This document shows, in pieces, positions 2,636-25,827 of a stretch of 64,000 nt of DNA. This DNA comes from an uncultured Acidimicrobiia bacterium (GTDB lineage Bacteria; Actinomycetota; Acidimicrobiia; Acidimicrobiales; AC-14). The notes under the pieces are model-generated. The model had not been told where the DNA came from and did no database searches. It saw nothing but the letters and a program-made list of their open reading frames with translations. The position numbers were made by a program, and so were the translations under genes. The DNA lies in contig CAWIIV010000008.1 of NCBI GenBank assembly GCA_963836205.1, forward strand, positions 169,831-233,830, read 5' to 3'. Within the stretch, counting starts at the first letter, position 1. Each line of letters starts with the position of its first letter.

Positions 2636-5011
2636 TCATCGGTACCCTGCCGGGGGCTCGACCCGGAGGATCGAGCCCGGCTCGCGGCCGGCGGGCTGGG
2701 CCGGGCGGGGCCGGGGGGCGATGGCCGGCACCTTGCGTTCGACCGGTTGGCCGATGGTCACGACCAGCTCCTCCCCGTGATGGGCGACCTCGAGCGGGTC
2801 TCCCTCCAGGAGAACGTAGGTCGCCACCGTCGGGGTGATCTCCACCCGCAGGCGCCGGCCCCGCACCGCCAGCCGGAAGGCGATGCGGCTGAGCTGCTCG
2901 GGCAGGCGGGGGGCGAAGCACAGCCGGCCCCCGTGGTCGCGCAGGCCGCCGAAGCCGCACACCACCGCCGACCAGGTGCCGGCCAGGGCGGCCAGGTGGA
3001 GCCCGTCGCGGGTGTTGTTCCCCAGGTCCCGGAGGTCGATGAGGGCCGTCTCCCGCAGGTACTCGAAGGCCAGGCCGAGATGGCCCACCTCGGCCGCCAT
3101 CACCGCCTGGGTGCACGCCGACAACGACGAGTCCCGCACCGTCAGCCGCTCGTAGTAGTCGAAGTTCCGGGCCTTCTCCGCGGGCGTGAAGGCGTCGCCC
3201 CGCAGGTGGAGGGCGAGGACGAGGTCGGCCTGCTTCACCACCTGCTTCCGGTAGAGGTCGAAGTACGGGTAGTGGAGGAAGAGCGGGTAGCGGTCGGACG
3301 GGGTCGCCTCGAAGTCCCACGCCTGGTGGTCGGTGAAGCCGTCGGCCTGGGGATGCACGCCCAGGACGGCGTCGTAGGGGACGACCATGGCCGTGGCCGC
3401 GTCCCGCCACGACACCAGCTCCTGGTCGTCGACGCCGTGGGCCGTGGCTTCGGCCGGGTGGCGGGCGGCAACGGTGGCGGCGGCCTCCAGATTCCGCTGG
3501 GCCATGAGGTTGGTGTAGACGTTGTTGTCGGCGACGGCGCTGTACTCGTCGGGACCGGTGACCCCGTCGATCCGGAACCGGCCCCGGTGGTCGTGGTGGC
3601 CGAGCGACCGCCACAGCCGAGCCGTGGCCACCAGCAGGTCGAGGCCGACGGTGCGCTCGAACTCCCAGTCGCCGGTGGCATCGACGTAGCGGATGGCGGC
3701 GGCGGCGATGTCGGCGTTGACGTGGAAGGCGGCGGTGCCCGCCGGCCAGTAGGCCGAGCACTCCTCGCCCGCGATCGTGCGCCAGGGGAACGCCGCGCCC
3801 TTCAGGCCCAGCTGGGCGGCCCGCTCGACGGCCAGGGGCAGCGTGTCCCGCCGCCATCCGAGGGCGTCGGCCACCGCCCGGGGGACCGTGTAGGTGAGGA
3901 CGGGAAGGACGAAGACCTCGGTGTCCCAGAACGAGTGGCCGTCGTAGCCGGGCCCGGTGAGGCCCTTGGCCGGGATGGCCCGCCGCTCGGCCCGCGCCCC
4001 CGCCTGCAGGACCTGGAACAGGGCGAAGCGCACCGCCTGCTGCACACCGGGGTCGCCGTCGACCTCCACGTCGGCCCGGCCCCAGAAGTCGTCGAGGAAC
4101 GCCCGCTGTTCGGCGACCAGGCCGTCCCACCCCGCCTGGCGGGCGGCGAGGAGGGCGGCAGCCACCTGGTCCCGCAGGGCCGGCACCGAACGCAGCCCCG
4201 ACCAGCCGTAGACCACGAACTTCACGATCCGCAGCCGCTGCCCCGGCTGCAAGGTCGTCGTCACCGACACCCGGCCGATGTCGGGGAAGCTCTCGGACTC
4301 GACGTCGAGGCCGTCGGCCGGGCCCTCGACGAGGTGGTCCATCCCGGCCGCCACCCGGATGCGGCTGGCCCTGGTGGTGTGGAGAAGGATGACGCGGCGC
4401 CCGTCGGCGGAGTGCTCGTCGGTGACGAGGGGGGCGTCGATGGCGGCCGCCACCCGGGGGTCGCCGGAGCGGGTGGGCACCGACTCGTTGGCCACCAGCT
4501 CCGACTGCACCACGACCCGCGCCGGCTCGCCGACCGCCTCGACGGTGTAGCTGATGGCGGCCACCGACCGCTGGGTGAGCGAGACCAGCCGCTCCGACGA
4601 CACCCGCACCACCTGGCCCGCGGGTGAAACCCACTCGACGTCCCGGGTGAGGGTGCCGGCCCGCAGGTCGAGCGCCCGCTGATGCGACCGGACGACGCCG
4701 TAGCGGACGTCGAAGGGTTCGTCGTCGACCAGCAGCCGCAGGAGCTTGCCGTTGGTGACGTTGATCACCGTCTGCCCCGCCTCGGGATAGCCGTAGCCGG
4801 CCTCGGCATGGGGCAGGGGCCGCCGCTCGTAGACCCCGTTGAGGTAGGTACCGGGCGTCCCGAAGGGCTCACCCTCGTCGAGGTTGCCCCGCAGCCCGAT
4901 GTGGCCGTTGGACAGGGCGAACACCGACTCGCTCTGGCTGAGGAGGTCGAGGCGCAGCTCGATCTCCCGTACGCACCACGGCTCGACGACGTACGCCGGC
5001 TCGGTGATCAC
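2636..5011 (-). CDS. Glycoside hydrolase family 65 (trehalose/maltose/kojibiose phosphorylase-like)
   Basis: ESVFALSNGHIGLRG, KGLTGPGYDGHSFWDTE, GVTGPDEY, VVKQADLVL, DSSLS; GTG at 5011 overlaps the upstream TGA (GTGA). Confidence 0.92.
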   Translation of the reverse strand: MITEPAYVVEPWCVREIELRLDLLSQSESVFALSNGHIGLRGNLDEGEPFGTPGTYLNGVYERRPLPHAEAGYGYPEAGQTVINVTNGKLLRLLVDDEPFDVRYGVVRSHQRALDLRAGTLTRDVEWVSPAGQVVRVSSERLVSLTQRSVAAISYTVEAVGEPARVVVQSELVANESVPTRSGDPRVAAAIDAPLVTDEHSADGRRVILLHTTRASRIRVAAGMDHLVEGPADGLDVESESFPDIGRVSVTTTLQPGQRLRIVKFVVYGWSGLRSVPALRDQVAAALLAARQAGWDGLVAEQRAFLDDFWGRADVEVDGDPGVQQAVRFALFQVLQAGARAERRAIPAKGLTGPGYDGHSFWDTEVFVLPVLTYTVPRAVADALGWRRDTLPLAVERAAQLGLKGAAFPWRTIAGEECSAYWPAGTAAFHVNADIAAAAIRYVDATGDWEFERTVGLDLLVATARLWRSLGHHDHRGRFRIDGVTGPDEYSAVADNNVYTNLMAQRNLEAAATVAARHPAEATAHGVDDQELVSWRDAATAMVVPYDAVLGVHPQADGFTDHQAWDFEATPSDRYPLFLHYPYFDLYRKQVVKQADLVLALHLRGDAFTPAEKARNFDYYERLTVRDSSLSACTQAVMAAEVGHLGLAFEYLRETALIDLRDLGNNTRDGLHLAALAGTWSAVVCGFGGLRDHGGRLCFAPRLPEQLSRIAFRLAVRGRRLRVEITPTVATYVLLEGDPLEVAHHGEELVVTIGQPVERKVPAIAPRPRPAQPAGREPGSILRVEPPAGYR

Positions 5012-9920: not shown

Positions 9921-10478
9921 TTGGCTGCCATCGACGTGGCCGGATACGTAGCGGAGCTCAAGGACCACGCCGTCGACCACGGCTTCCATGTCCACGACGA
10001 GCGCCACTTCGTGGAGACGTACTCCCTGCGCCAGGTGTGGGAGGTCGACCTCCACCCGGAGGAGGGCTGCGGTGGCCCCCTCGACCTCCACCTTGCGCTG
10101 GAAGTGGAGCCGCGGGTGCTCCTCGCCTTCGAGGACGTGGTGTCGAACCTGCCCGACGACGAGGACCCGGCCGACGACTTCCAGTTCCCCCTCATCTTCA
10201 CGTGGGCCCTGCCGCCGCTGCCCAAGGGCCCCGACCTGCTCCTGTTGGCCACCGAGTTGGCCGGCGTGGGCGGGCCCGACCTGCCCCTCGAGGTGTCGGC
10301 CATCGACTCGTTCGCCTCGGTCACCGACGCCCCCGAGCGCAGCCTCACCATCGTCGCCCGCCAGCAGGTGTCGCTGGCCAAGGTCCTGGCCGGCGAGGAG
10401 CTGCTGTGCGACATGCTCGACCGCTGCCTGGCCGTCAGCCGCTTCCTGCTCGACCAGGCGCCGGCGTGGGGCGTCTGA
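9921..10478 (+). CDS. Hypothetical protein
   Basis: Strong SD GGAGGAGG before TTG at 9921; host-like codon usage; no family recognised. Confidence 0.75.
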   Translation: MAAIDVAGYVAELKDHAVDHGFHVHDERHFVETYSLRQVWEVDLHPEEGCGGPLDLHLALEVEPRVLLAFEDVVSNLPDDEDPADDFQFPLIFTWALPPLPKGPDLLLLATELAGVGGPDLPLEVSAIDSFASVTDAPERSLTIVARQQVSLAKVLAGEELLCDMLDRCLAVSRFLLDQAPAWGV

Positions 10479-10488
10479 CGCAAAACCC

Positions 10489-10517
10489 TTGACAGAAGGG
10501 GAGCCCGGGCTTATATT
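10489..10517 (+). promoter_or_regulatory. Sigma-70/SigA-type promoter
   Basis: TTGACA (10489-10494), 17-bp spacer, TATATT (10512-10517), rare in ~73% GC context. Confidence 0.85.
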
Positions 10518-10523
10518 TGTCTT

Positions 10524-10607
10524 CCGGAGTCCCAAGGGGGCACCCGAAGCGGAAGGACCCTCGGGTCCAGAAGCGGAGGAAACTTCCTTGGGGCTCCTCT
10601 TTTTTTT
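10524..10607 (+). ncRNA. Putative structured small RNA of unknown family
   Basis: 15-bp closing stem 10526-10540/10583-10597, central hairpin GGACCC-TC-GGGTCC flanked by two GAAGCGGA motifs, 8-T tail; directly downstream of the promoter. Confidence 0.7.
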
Positions 10608-10626
10608 GCCCTATTGTCGGGTTCTG

Positions 10627-10709
10627 GCCCGGATGGCGGAACGGTAGACGCGATGGTCTCAAACACCATTGTCCGAAAGGGCGTGCGGGTTCGAGTCCCG
10701 CTCCGGGCA
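10627..10709 (+). tRNA. tRNA-Leu(CAA)
   Basis: GCCCGGA acceptor, ATGGT-CTCAAAC-ACCAT anticodon arm, long variable arm, GGTTCGAGTCCC. Confidence 0.97.
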
Positions 10710-10835
10710 CGGCCGTTCGGCGGCATACACGCTGGCAGCGTCCTCTAGGGCCTCTGCGTGAGATGCATTGAGGTGTCCTTCGTGGTCACGAGTTGGTCAC
10801 AGATCGCCGGACGGGGGTTCGGCAGCGTCCTGCGG

Positions 10836-10883
10836 GTCGACGGCAATGTGTGAGTCGACGGCAATGTGAGTCGACGGCAATGT
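10836..10883. repeat. Three tandem copies of GTCGACGGCAATGT
   Basis: Copies at 10836, 10854 and 10870. Confidence 0.9.
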
Positions 10884-10909
10884 CGTGCAGCAAAGTCTTG
10901 AGGTGATCT

Positions 10910-11070
10910 CCCGCCAGGACCGGCCCGCAAGAATTGAGATGCCGGGTGTAGCAGTCGACCGTGGAAGGTGCCCGCCCCGAGGTGGACAGCCCGGCCGTCC
11001 AGCCGTCAAGGTAGGCGGCCGGGGTGAGGCGGCTCGGGTCGACATAGGTCTGGTCCCGCGCGCTGATCCT
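10910..11070 (-). pseudogene. Tyrosine integrase N-terminal (core-binding) remnant
   Basis: TYVDPSRLTPAAYLDGWTAGL..RAPSTVDCYTRHL resembles the actinobacterial phage-integrase N-terminal region; no catalytic domain follows. Confidence 0.6.
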
Positions 11071-11114
11071 GAGGCGGATCCGAGTAGAAGGAGGCGGCCG
11101 ATGGATCTCGTCCT

Positions 11115-11384
11115 CTACAGGACGAGATCCAGGTACGACGGGCGGTCGATCCGGCACTCGACCATGTCGTAGACCTGCCTTCTGGTAACGCCGAGTTGCC
11201 GACCGATCGCAGAGACCAGCGAGTCGTCGATGTCGCGGGCGCCGCGGGACACCTGGGTATGTGCCACCCACACACCGTCGATCTCGAGCTTGTACTTGTC
11301 GTGAGGCCCGCGGCCCGACCCGTCGCAGGTGAACCCGAACTTCCCCGTCAGTGCGGTGCGCAGGGCTCGGGCGGCGAGGGGCAC
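11115..11384 (-). CDS. HicA-like toxin (dsRBD-fold mRNA interferase)
   Basis: 89 aa; KFGF..GRGPHDKYKL (candidate catalytic His), DIDDSLVSAIGRQLGV. Confidence 0.65.
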   Translation of the reverse strand: MPLAARALRTALTGKFGFTCDGSGRGPHDKYKLEIDGVWVAHTQVSRGARDIDDSLVSAIGRQLGVTRRQVYDMVECRIDRPSYLDLVL

Positions 11385-11813
11385 CTATCCGAAGACGAGC
11401 CTAAGAAACGCCAGCTGACGTTGCATCCGTGGGTGCAGCCGTTCCTGGTGGAGGCGCAGCTCGTCATAGTGCTCCCGCGCTGCCTGGCGCCAGTGCTCCA
11501 TCGCTTCGCCAAATGACTGGCCGACGCCGTAGGCCCCTCCCTCTGGGTCCGAAACGACGACGGTTCCCTCCTCGCCCAGCCGCACGGTCAACCGCTGGAA
11601 CGCCTCAGCTGAGGAGCCGACCGCGGGAGCGCCTACGTGCACGACCAGCGTCGTTCCGCCGACCTGCGTCTGTGCCGGTGGCTCCCAAGAGTTGAGATCG
11701 TCCCATTCAAGCTCGAGGCTTGGCCTTTGGCCTGGGTCGACGTCGCTGTTCGTTGGGTCGGTTGTGCGCCCCGGTTGAGGGAAGGCGAACCGCTCCATCG
11801 TCATGTCACTCAC
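11385..11813 (-). CDS. HicB-like antitoxin with N-terminal low-complexity extension
   Basis: VVVSDPEGGAYGVGQSFGEAMEHWRQA matches the HicB partial RNase-H pattern; no RHH/HTH seen. Confidence 0.65.
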   Translation of the reverse strand: MSDMTMERFAFPQPGRTTDPTNSDVDPGQRPSLELEWDDLNSWEPPAQTQVGGTTLVVHVGAPAVGSSAEAFQRLTVRLGEEGTVVVSDPEGGAYGVGQSFGEAMEHWRQAAREHYDELRLHQERLHPRMQRQLAFLRLVFG

Positions 11814-12142
11814 TCGCTCATCCCTCCTGGTCCTCTCAGGTCAAGCCCTGGCGGGCCGAACTGCCTCAGATATTCACCAAACTGCGCCTGCAACAGGCTG
11901 ATCAAGGCGTGCATCAAGGTCGCCGGAACAACAACATGAGCCACGGCCTGCGGGTGGATCTCGACTACCCCCCCTTCGACATCCTCGGGTGACACCTGAA
12001 GCGGCGACAGGAAGAGGCTGAACATCAGGCGGAAGTCGTGGGGAGTGAAGTTAATGTTGGCGGCGTTCGCGTAGACCGGCCGCAGGTAGTCCGGCTCGAT
12101 CGGAGGTCCGACCGAAACGTTGAGGCCTGCCTGTTCCGACAC
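11810..12142 (-). CDS. DUF3467-like protein
   Basis: PVYANAANINFTPHDFRLMF..AHVVVPATLMHALISLLQAQFGEYLRQFG; SD GGAGGAG before GTG at 12142. Confidence 0.75.
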   Translation of the reverse strand: MSEQAGLNVSVGPPIEPDYLRPVYANAANINFTPHDFRLMFSLFLSPLQVSPEDVEGGVVEIHPQAVAHVVVPATLMHALISLLQAQFGEYLRQFGPPGLDLRGPGGMSE

Positions 12143-12250
12143 CGCTTCTCCTCCGCCCTGGGCGTTACACGCTTGTGATTTGGTGCACAAATAATGGTAC
12201 TAGTCATGCCGCCGGAAGGAAGGACCAGCATCCAAGCGTTCCTCTCCCTG

Positions 12251-12301
12251 GGGCCAAACACAGTGTCGGTCATGTCCGGGCCAAAGACAGTGTCGGTCAT
12301 G
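12251..12301. repeat. 24-bp direct repeat with 27-bp period
   Basis: GGGCCAAA(C/G)ACAGTGTCGGTCATG at 12251 and 12278. Confidence 0.85.
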
Positions 12302-12649
12302 ACGAGTCCCGTCGAGCGCCCACAGGCGTCGTCGCTGGTCACACCGTGGTCACGGAATGCCCGCCACTCGACAACACCAGACACCATGCCCGTTGTGGCG
12401 CCAACCCGAAAGGGCTGTCCAGAGCGGTCGTCTCGACCCCTGGCATCATCCGATGAACAAGGCCTGCGGGAGTTCGAGTCCCGCTCCGGGCACGGCCGTC
12501 ACCCACGACGCTCAGGGTGCACGGAACGAACCGTGCGCCGAGATGGCCGTGATCCGGCCCGAGATCGCCGCCGACACGACGATTCGAGCGATCTGAAGGG
12601 CGACCGACGTTACGTGCGCCGGAATCGTCGTGGGCGGTGGGGGGCGGCG

Positions 12650-23755: not shown

Positions 23756-25032
23756 TCAGCCGTCGAGGCGGTCGTTGGCGTAGTCGTCGTACGCGCCGAG
23801 GTCGAGGAGGCCGTGGCCGGAGTAGGAGAAGAGGATCACCCGCTCGGCGCCCTCCTCCTTGGCCAGGAGGGCCTCGTCGACCGCAGCCCGGATGGCGTGG
23901 GACGTCTCGGGGGCCGGGATCGACCCCTGGGTGCGGGCGAACTGCACGGCCGCCTCGAAGCACTTGCCCTGCGGGTACGCCACCGCCTCGATGCGTCCCG
24001 ACTGGACGAGGTTCGACACAAGGGGCGAGTCGCCGTGGTACCGGAGGCCACCGGCGTGGATGGGCGGGGGCATGAAATCGTGGCCGAGGGTGTACATGGC
24101 CAGCAGCGGGGTCATGCCGGCGGTGTCGCCGAAGTCGTAGTCGAAGCGTCCCCCGGTGAGGGTGGGGCATGACGACGGCTCCACCGCCACCAGGCGCACG
24201 CCCTCGTCGGGGACGAACGGGAAGGCGATCCCGCCAAAGTTCGACCCCCCGCCGCAGGAGCCGATGACCACGTCGGGCTTCTCCTCCCCCGCCGCCGCCA
24301 GCTGCTCCTTGGCCTCCAGGCCGATGACGGTCTGGTGCAGGAGGACGTGGTTGAGCACCGATCCCAGTGCGTAGTGGGTGTCGGGACGGCTGGCGGCGTC
24401 GGCGACGGCGTCGCTGATGGCGCTGCCCAAGGACCCGGGCGAGTCGGGGTCGGCCACCGGCGACGGCTCCACCTGTCCGCCCCACGTCTCGATCATCACC
24501 CGCCGGTAGGGCTTCTGCTGGAACGACGAGCGCACCATGTAGACCTTGCACTCCAGGTCGAAGAGGGAGCAGGCGAGGGACAGGGCGCTCCCCCACTGGC
24601 CGGCGCCGGTCTCGGTGGCCAGGCGGGTGGTGCCGTCGGCCTTGTTGTAGAAGGCCTGGGGGATGGCGGTGTTGGGCTTGTGCGACCCGGCCGGCGACAC
24701 CGACTCGTCCTTGTAGTAGATCCGGGCCGGCGTGCCGAGGAAGGCCTCCAGGCGGCGGGCCCGCACGAGGGGCGTCGGCCGCCACATGCGGAGCACGTCG
24801 AGCACCTCGCCGGGGATGTCGACCCACGGCTCGGCCGTGACCTCCTGGCCGATGAGGGCCATGGGGAACAGGGGGGCGAGGTCGTCGGGGCCGATCGGCT
24901 GGCGGGTGCCGGGGTGGAGCGGGGGCTGCAGCGGCGCGGTGAGGTGGGGGGCGACGTTGAACCAGGCGGACGGGATGCGGTCGGGCGGGAGGAGCCAGCG
25001 ACACCCATTGGGGTTGCATCGGAAACGGTCAT
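23756..25032 (-). CDS. TrpB2-type tryptophan synthase beta-like enzyme (likely -1 indel near 25001)
   Basis: [38 protein letters not shown]; ATG at 25032 overlaps the trpC stop (ATGA) but is out of frame with the body. Confidence 0.9.
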
Positions 25033-25827
25033 GACGGTTCACCTCGCAGGGTTCGGAGGGCGTCGGCGGGGTCGGCGGCGGTCACCAGCTGCTCCCCCAC
25101 CAGGATGGCGTCGTAGCCGGCCTCGGCCAGGGCGTCGACCTGGGCCGGCGTGTGGATGCCCGACTCGGCGATCTTCATGACTCCGTCGGGGATGAGGGCA
25201 GCCAGGCGGGCCGCCCGCGTGGGGTCGACCTCGAAGGTGTGCAGGTCGCGCTGGTTGACCCCGATGATGGTGGCGCCGGCCTTGAGGGCGACGGCCACCT
25301 CGTCCTCGTCGTGGACCTCGACCACCGCGGCCAGTCCCAGTCCGTCGGCCAGGTTCCGCAGGCGGGAGAGGTCGCCCGGGTTGAGGGCGGCCACGATCAG
25401 GAGGACGGCGTCGGCGCCCATGGCCCGGGCGTCGGCCACGTCGCGGCCGTCGACGGTGAAGTCCTTGCGAAGGATCGGGCAGGTCGGGGGCCGCCTGGCG
25501 GGCCGCGGCCAGGTCGTCGGGCGAGCCGCCGAAGAACTCGGCGTCGGTGAGCACTGACAGGGCCGACGCCCCCGCCGACTGGTAGGCCCGGGCCAGGACG
25601 GCGGGGTCGAGGTCGGGGGCGAGGTCGCCCTTCGACGGGGACCGGCGCTTGATCTCGGCGATCACCGCCGGCCGTCCGGTGCGGGCCGCCGCCACCCGTA
25701 GGAGGCCGCGGAAGTCGCGCGGGTCCGGGGCCTCGAAGGCGGCGGTCATGGTGGCGTCGAGCCAACGCTTGTCGGCCAGGGCCGCCTCCCGGTGGGCGGC
25801 GATGATGCGGTCGAGGACGGTGGGCAT
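25029..25827 (-). CDS. trpC: Indole-3-glycerol phosphate synthase (apparent +1 frameshift near 25477)
   Basis: [12 protein letters not shown] and SVLTD, then ILRKDF, VEVHD, GVNQRDL, AESGI in the next frame. Confidence 0.92.

Follow-up and report, generated by a model that had tools for sequence, protein, structure and literature searches.

A predicted small hairpin RNA gene neighbouring tRNA-Leu(CAA) in one clade of Acidimicrobiales

Among the described bacterial RNAs, a few come close to the hairpin considered here. The small SRP (4.5S) RNA is a rod-like hairpin whose domain IV carries a GNRA tetraloop together with conserved symmetric and asymmetric loops. The bacterial Y RNAs, including YrlA, combine a long conserved stem formed by their 5' and 3' ends with a tRNA-like domain, and the CsrB/RsmZ-type sRNAs display many GGA triplets in hairpin loops. 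Finally, 3'ETS-leuZ, a small non-tRNA RNA in physical linkage with a leucine tRNA gene, antagonises RyhB (PMC13501541). Acidimicrobiia are a widespread, mostly uncultured class of actinobacteria, for which neither the passages returned by a full-text search nor Rfam provided any described regulatory RNA.

The locus lies in a stretch of 64 kb (~73% G+C), hereafter called the window, whose genes are of the housekeeping kind, with those for MMPL, NUDIX and inositol monophosphatase proteins, fatty-acid synthesis, trp and his functions and two-component systems. All the features of the following list are on the plus strand:

9921-10478, +, gene of a conserved 185-aa protein, upstream neighbour of the unit and syntenic anchor
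10489-10494, +, -35 hexamer TTGACA, as read on the sequence
10512-10517, +, -10 hexamer TATATT, separated from the -35 hexamer by a 17-nt spacer
10526-10597, +, predicted sRNA body, a single rod-like hairpin of 72 nt in the fold of the window copy
10526-10540 with 10583-10597, +, closing stem P1, 15 bp with three G-U pairs
10541-10543 with 10580-10582, +, 3x3 internal loop in the fold
10544-10545 with 10578-10579, +, CC/GG mini-helix P2 in the fold
10546-10554 and 10569-10577, +, purine-rich loops in the fold
10546-10553, +, first GAAGCGGA module, on the 5' strand of the purine-rich loop (window and L001 only)
10555-10559 with 10564-10568, +, apical stem P3, GGACC/GGTCC, in the fold
10560-10563, +, CUCG tetraloop (DNA CTCG) closing P3
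10570-10577, +, second GAAGCGGA module, on the 3' strand of the purine-rich loop (window and L001 only)
10600-10607, +, T8 tract, forming with P1 a predicted intrinsic terminator
10612-10617, +, TATTGT, possible weak -10 element (TAnnnT) for tRNA-Leu, 9 nt before the tRNA
10627-10710, +, tRNA-Leu(CAA), in tandem, 19 nt after T8

The initial annotation had proposed at this place a compact plus-strand RNA gene, provided with its own near-consensus promoter and ending in a hairpin and a U-tract, and the predicted gene has this anatomy throughout. The promoter TTGACA-17-TATATT matches the consensus at 11 of 12 positions and is the only sigma-70-type match of at least 10/12 on either strand of the 64 kb, the unit therefore sitting on the strongest promoter of the window. 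The pairing of the two ends into a 15-bp stem with G-U pairs, the inner GGACC/GGTCC hairpin with its CTCG loop (10555-10568), the two flanking GAAGCGGA copies and a total of five GGA triplets are all recovered in the window copy. The preference for the plus strand is also confirmed: the hairpin has a minimum free energy (MFE) of -44.4 kcal/mol (z -2.43 versus shuffles), with the MFE structure representing 0.91 of the ensemble, whereas its reverse strand folds less well (-36.7 kcal/mol, z -1.61), and the covariance model of the family scores 73.6 bits on the plus strand versus 12.2 bits on the minus strand. From the distance between the -10 hexamer and the stem, transcription would probably start at position 10526 or one nucleotide before. 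The eight Ts that follow the hairpin are the only T-run of five or more on the plus strand of the window, where A-runs of this length number two. The 64 kb are nearly devoid of T-tracts, and U-tract terminators seem to be hardly used in this lineage, which is why T8 after the hairpin stands out.

No Rfam 15 family matches the hairpin, in which the initial annotation had recognised neither a tRNA, SRP RNA or tmRNA nor a riboswitch. At gathering thresholds, the search of the whole window returns two tRNAs only. When the E-value is relaxed up to 10, over positions 10400-10760 of the window and 4560-4800 of L010, one of the related loci, no plus-strand match overlaps the hairpin; the lone overlapping match is that of MH_s10, on the minus strand of L010 (E 9.2). 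A blastn search of plasmids with positions 10480-10720, which include the tRNA, yields tRNA matches only, and a search of phages with positions 10484-10612 yields one chance-level match in a tail-protein gene (E 0.1). In the passages returned by the full-text literature search, no such RNA is described in Acidimicrobiia. The hairpin gene would thus appear to be a genuine, previously uncatalogued sRNA family, predicted and of narrow known range.

Relatives were collected by scanning a genome collection with an alignment of the upstream 185-aa protein. At least 598 stretches matched, 594 were confirmed, and the best 80 loci were kept (L001 to L080). The promoter-hairpin unit is present in 9 of these 80 best syntenic loci, which makes ten members with the window, and in all ten it lies downstream of the 185-aa gene. 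In L001, L002, L005, L007, L008, L009, L010 and L047 it was seen just there, and in L004 it was found by motif search, ~610 nt past the stop codon of the anchor gene; in the nine other loci, window included, the distance is 47-90 nt (47 nt in the window). A covariance model built from the ten members and run over the window and the 80 loci (644,926 bases) matches exactly these ten (72-94.5 bits, E at most 3e-18) and no further copy; the next-best matches are reverse strands of member loci (12-31 bits), followed by three matches at E 0.3-0.8. In the tree of the anchor gene, which comprises 42 rows (the window, L001-L040 and L047, L041-L046 and L048-L080 being left out), all ten carriers fall within one 12-row clade (SH-aLRT 95). 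The two other rows of the clade, L003 and L006, have no unit at the anchor locus by either sequence or covariance model, and the RNA is therefore dispensable or able to sit elsewhere. At the position of the sRNA, L006 (2530-2640) carries a TTGACG promoter-like sequence and segments resembling parts of the hairpin, with no match to the covariance model and a fold no better than that of shuffles (z +0.63); this segment may be a decayed copy of the unit. As far as the search extended, the family appears to be confined to one clade of Acidimicrobiales and to comprise at least ten species-level genomes.

A functional unit had been expected to be conserved in relatives, and promoter, fold and stem are indeed kept by the ten members of the clade. 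The -35 hexamer is TTGAC(A/G/T) and the -10 hexamer TAnnnT in 10/10, the latter always 7-8 nt ahead of the first G of the stem; the spacer between them measures 16-17 nt and has a pairwise identity of 45%. The MFE architecture is identical in 10/10 (window and nine relatives folded). In the alignment fitted to the model, 90.4% of the cells are paired, versus 63% when the partners are slid by one column, a level of pairing that none of 500 shuffles reaches. Collecting homologues to look for covariation had also been suggested, and covariation is found: its score is 0.164 versus 0.118 in shuffles, 2/500 of which reach it, and five pairs change on both sides, a count reached by 46/500 shuffles. 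It is concentrated in the apical stem, where 4/6 pairs change on both sides. For a sample of ten members of a single clade, counted on an alignment that is fitted to the model and hence favours structure, covariation is modest overall.

The closing stem behaves differently, with nine of its 15 pairs invariant and one changing on both sides, and this near-invariance leaves the closing stem itself without covariation support. One of its positions is an A-C mismatch in 4/10 members, and two more are unpaired in one and three members, respectively. Its pairwise identity is 0.90, versus 0.64 at the third codon positions of the neighbouring gene, whose first and second codon positions reach 0.95. 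Within the rod, the 3x3 loop is kept as YRA opposite AAW, and the CC/GG helix (2-3 bp) and the purine-rich loop strands are kept in 10/10. GGAA (10578-10581 in the window) is invariant. The apical loop is CUCG, CACG or CUAG in all ten, the loops on either side of the apical stem differ in sequence from one member to the next, and conserved unpaired stretches do not extend beyond 3-4 nt. The hairpin is followed by 3-8 U in 10/10 (3-7 U in the relatives). The members measure 81, 81, 83 (five of them), 85, 87 and 87 nt, owing to indels of 1-2 nt in the centre. Since the lengths differ by 2, 4 or 6 nt, there is no conserved ORF, and a small protein-coding gene is ruled out; after an SD-like GGAGG, the only start-like codon is UUG in the window, and four members have CUC in its place. 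Taken as a predicted gene, the unit would combine a conserved promoter and terminator of its own, in an intergenic region, with a conserved structure that shows covariation among ten members in a model-fitted alignment, as does a stand-alone sRNA gene.

When compared to the small SRP RNA, the hairpin is of similar size and shares the rod-like shape, the paired 5' and 3' ends, the purine-rich internal loops and sequence-conserved helix segments that are likely to be recognised by protein. It differs by its CUCG tetraloop, which is not GNRA, and by the variable sequence of the flanking loops, and the SRP models of Rfam do not match it at E up to 10; it is therefore not a 4.5S RNA. An SRP-like motif considered by eye was dropped for the same tetraloop, and so was a K-turn, the mini-helix lying between the 3-nt loop and what might be tandem G-A pairs. 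With the Y RNAs, the hairpin has in common the enclosure of its ends in a long conserved stem, the U-rich tail and the proximity of a tRNA-like sequence, but it has no tRNA-like domain of its own. The Deinococcus_Y_RNA (E 1.5 and 0.34) and YrlA (E 9.1) matches are weak and fall on the tRNA gene, and no TROVE/Rsr gene is present among the scanned ORFs of the 64-kb window, so that an assignment to Y RNA/YrlA was abandoned. The likeness to 3'ETS-leuZ lies in the linkage to a leucine tRNA gene and in the fact that, in 3-5 of the ten loci, the hairpin is necessarily or plausibly part of the tRNA primary transcript, from which tRNA processing could release it. Unlike 3'ETS-leuZ, the hairpin is located on the 5' side of the tRNA, has a promoter-to-stem geometry and a terminator of its own, persists where the tRNA is inverted and is without a known sRNA partner. 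The host is an actinobacterium that is not known to have Hfq.

We favour the view, with a probability of roughly 0.45, that the unit is a stand-alone gene for a stable, trans-acting, protein-binding small RNA, which could serve as a scaffold, a decoy or a subunit. A housekeeping-type promoter would start transcription at the first base of the long hairpin, and the same hairpin, followed by U residues, would end it. The product would be an RNA of ~75-85 nt, stable and probably abundant, and consisting as a whole of one rod in which the invariant closing stem, the 3x3 loop, the CC/GG mini-helix, the purine-rich loops and the apical stem follow each other; the purine-rich loops might close through purine-purine pairs. 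Its stability is suggested by a 5' end lying inside a helix. Protein binding is probable from the pattern of conservation, and it is preferred over seed pairing because the sequence of the stem, and not only its pairing, is conserved on both strands, because the conserved unpaired stretches are limited to 3-4 nt, and because the purine-rich loops can form an irregular continuous helix, a typical platform for proteins. As for the partner, nothing RNA-related is found among the scanned ORFs of the 64-kb window. With a helix sequence whose conservation comes close to that of codon positions one and two in the neighbouring gene, the RNA would offer a handle on a new RNA-protein partnership. Overall, this is one more orphan sRNA candidate of narrow known range.

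The first alternative comes from the tRNA gene. tRNA-Leu(CAA) adjoins the unit in 8/10 loci, either in tandem and directly downstream (window, L001, L007, L010 and L047) or convergently, on the opposite strand and 36-205 nt away (L002, L005 and L009). No tRNA-Leu is found in L004 within the 3.3 kb of locus that lie downstream of the RNA, and none is seen in L008, where the contig extends only 540 nt beyond the RNA. In L007, L010 and L047, only 12-14 nt separate the hairpin from the tRNA and the U-tract is weak (3-4 U), and the tRNA should therefore be made by read-through. In the window and L001, the T7-T8 tract is strong, the end of the stem and the start of the tRNA are 29-31 nt apart, and the spacer contains a TAnnnT sequence; this sequence, TATTGT in the window and TAATGT in L001, is a possible weak promoter element of the tRNA. 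Furthermore, L003 displays the stop codon of the anchor gene, a promoter-like sequence and the tRNA, but no hairpin, and the adjacency of anchor gene and tRNA-Leu is confined to the same clade as the RNA. All this would agree with a cis-acting leader of tRNA-Leu(CAA), the promoter being that of the tRNA and the hairpin a constitutive attenuator or a stabilising 5' structure that sets the amount of this UUG-decoding tRNA, with the released hairpin as a by-product. Such a leader is nevertheless unlikely to account for the unit. It should always lie upstream of the tRNA and on the same strand, whereas the tandem arrangement is that of five loci out of ten, and promoter, stem sequence and fold are kept where the tRNA is inverted as well as in L004, where none lies within the 3.3 kb downstream. 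The fold makes up 0.91 of the ensemble and leaves no alternative pairing, so the hairpin could not act as a switch, and an attenuator has no need for a stem of invariant sequence.

The initial annotation had envisaged an attenuator gating read-through into tRNA-Leu. This proposal holds in part, for the five tandem loci and in particular for the three with read-through, and fails for the three in which the tRNA is on the opposite strand; as the RNA is kept in these three of the ten loci, tRNA gating is not its general function. The downstream protein genes vary between loci, and none is conserved among the member loci. A unit kept with an inverted tRNA and with varying downstream genes must be an independent gene and not only a tRNA leader, and in loci where it abuts the tRNA, the RNA is probably part of the same transcript. 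Where a tandem tRNA leaves no room for a promoter of its own, the hairpin would form the 5' part of a hairpin-tRNA precursor, from which either termination or a cut by RNase P at the 5' end of the tRNA could release it. This dicistronic arrangement would be a simple natural case in which the efficiency of termination divides the output of one promoter between an sRNA and a tRNA. An origin of the hairpin from the adjacent tRNA-Leu, or a pairing with it, was also considered and dropped, alignments and duplexes being no better than those of shuffled sequences. In the same orientation, local alignments of sRNA and tRNA are at shuffle level in 8/8 loci (an equal or higher score is reached by 70-282 of 500 shuffles), and in reverse complement only L010 stands out (13/500 shuffles). 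The energies of sRNA-tRNA duplexes are within the range of shuffles (5/200 for L010, the best, and 13-108/200 for the others).

A base-pairing sRNA is about as improbable as the tRNA leader. The CU-rich 3' strand of the stem (CUUCCUYGGGG) would open and pair with purine-rich ribosome-binding sites or, in a variant of this proposal, the invariant (R)GGAA would pair with pyrimidine-rich targets. C/U-rich, anti-Shine-Dalgarno-like seeds are usual in the sRNAs of Gram-positive bacteria and actinobacteria, and trans-acting sRNAs have, like this unit, their own promoter and terminator. The upper stem could moreover be prone to opening, as it contains two G-U pairs, one in 10/10 members and the other being G-U in 6/10, as well as positions that are unpaired in 1-4 of the ten; conservation of a seed on one strand would also force that of the partner strand. 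However, the candidate seed is enclosed in a hairpin of about -44 kcal/mol, the MFE structure of which dominates the ensemble, conserved unpaired stretches extend over 3-4 nt only, and pairing to the tRNA does not exceed that of shuffled sequences. Elsewhere in the 64-kb window, complementarities reach 10-11 nt at most, which is the level expected by chance.

One further possibility, rather improbable, joins the protein-binding RNA and the tRNA: the hairpin could be the RNA subunit or decoy of a clade-specific protein, made from the same promoter as tRNA-Leu(CAA). If so, the level of a regulatory ribonucleoprotein would be coupled to the supply of a UUG-decoding tRNA, the arrangement would parallel the E. 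coli sponges made from tRNA spacers, with a 5' leader in the role of the spacer, and it would recall, in a genome of 73% G+C, the bldA-type control that operates via a rare leucine codon.

It is very improbable that there is no functional RNA at all, the hairpin and T-run being the terminator of the 185-aa gene and the promoter serving the tRNA or being incidental. Hairpin and T8 do make up a textbook intrinsic terminator, 47 nt after the stop codon, but a promoter conserved in 10/10 members stands between that codon and the hairpin, 7-8 nt from the stem. Free drift is the rule for terminator stems, whereas this closing stem is 90% identical and accompanied by conserved internal loops, mini-helix and tetraloop. 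In L004, the unit is ~610 nt away from the stop codon of the gene, and T-tracts are almost never used in this genome.

The least probable reading, and a poorly supported one on the sequences compared, is that of an RNA sequestering CsrA/RsmA through two GGA-containing modules, which the initial annotation had put first: the window copy does have five GGA and a pair of identical GAAGCGGA modules, 24 nt apart, and one GGAA is invariant in 10/10, but only the window and L001 (2/10) have the twin modules, the 5' strand of the loop has a GGA in 5/10, and no member has one in a hairpin loop, while half of the invariant GGAA is engaged in the CC/GG helix. Stem and motifs had both been expected to persist in relatives, and only the stem does so (90% identity). 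GAAGCGGA is itself frequent in the window, with 9 matches versus 2.2 expected. The RNA is like the CsrB/RsmZ sRNAs in being short, predicted to be strongly transcribed and, in the window copy, rich in GGA, and unlike them in being a single rod with a CUCG apical loop and in not conserving its GGA-bearing modules; several exposed and conserved GGA, the hallmark of this type of sponge, are lacking. To our knowledge, the antagonist of a FliW-partnered CsrA is a protein and not an sRNA, and no csrA is present among the scanned ORFs of the 64-kb window. Taxonomy would be compatible with such a sponge, as CsrA and FliW appear to be present in flagellated Acidimicrobiia (PMC10746217). The same paper, on actinobacterial flagella, reports flagellar gene clusters in 41-91% of the species of classes including Acidimicrobiia, and its Table S2 appears to list, for Acidimicrobium ferrooxidans, a CsrA of 80 aa and a FliW of 165 aa, the columns of the table being assigned by counting (PMC10746217).

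The 185-aa protein of the upstream gene is acidic and rich in His. Its closest relatives, more than 100 proteins with 84-99% identity, come from metagenome-assembled genomes of Acidimicrobiales, and clustering at 50% leaves 308 representatives. It has no match in Pfam, NCBIfam or the PDB sequences, and only unannotated clusters contain it in the Atlas. Its AlphaFold model is confident (pLDDT 92.2), and the best fold match in the PDB is a weak, YbjN/AmyR-like one (E 0.017, TM 0.35). A functional tie between the sRNA and this protein was considered and dropped, nothing suggesting that it binds RNA. In other clades (L017, L021, L032, L041, L055 and L067), a small ORF lies just downstream of the 185-aa gene and bears a C2H2-like zinc-finger signature (QCPFCELRF...KWEL..HL..EHP).

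Some observations concern the surroundings of the unit. In L009 and L005, a Cheo/SOS-box-like palindrome directly follows the sRNA (~4690-4720), CGAACACATGTTCG in the former and a GAAC-N4-GTTT variant in the latter; the next gene of these two loci may be regulated by LexA. In the window, an exact direct repeat of 28 nt is found at 10689-10716 and 12472-12499, and corresponds to the last 21 nt of tRNA-Leu(CAA) and 7 nt beyond. The ~1.75-kb segment between the repeats (~10717-12471) has a lower G+C content (0.66-0.68) and contains a DUF3467 ORF (11810-12190, minus strand); no integrase was found, and the segment looks like what is left of an element once inserted in the tRNA gene. Just inside this segment, beside the tRNA, three tandem copies of the 14-nt unit GTCGACGGCAATGT (~10840-10887) look like arm-type or iteron-like repeats that might bind a protein. 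Further away, the indole-3-glycerol-phosphate synthase ORF (25029-25439, minus strand) matches only positions 125-254 of the 254 of its profile, which reflects either a miscalled start or an upstream frameshift.
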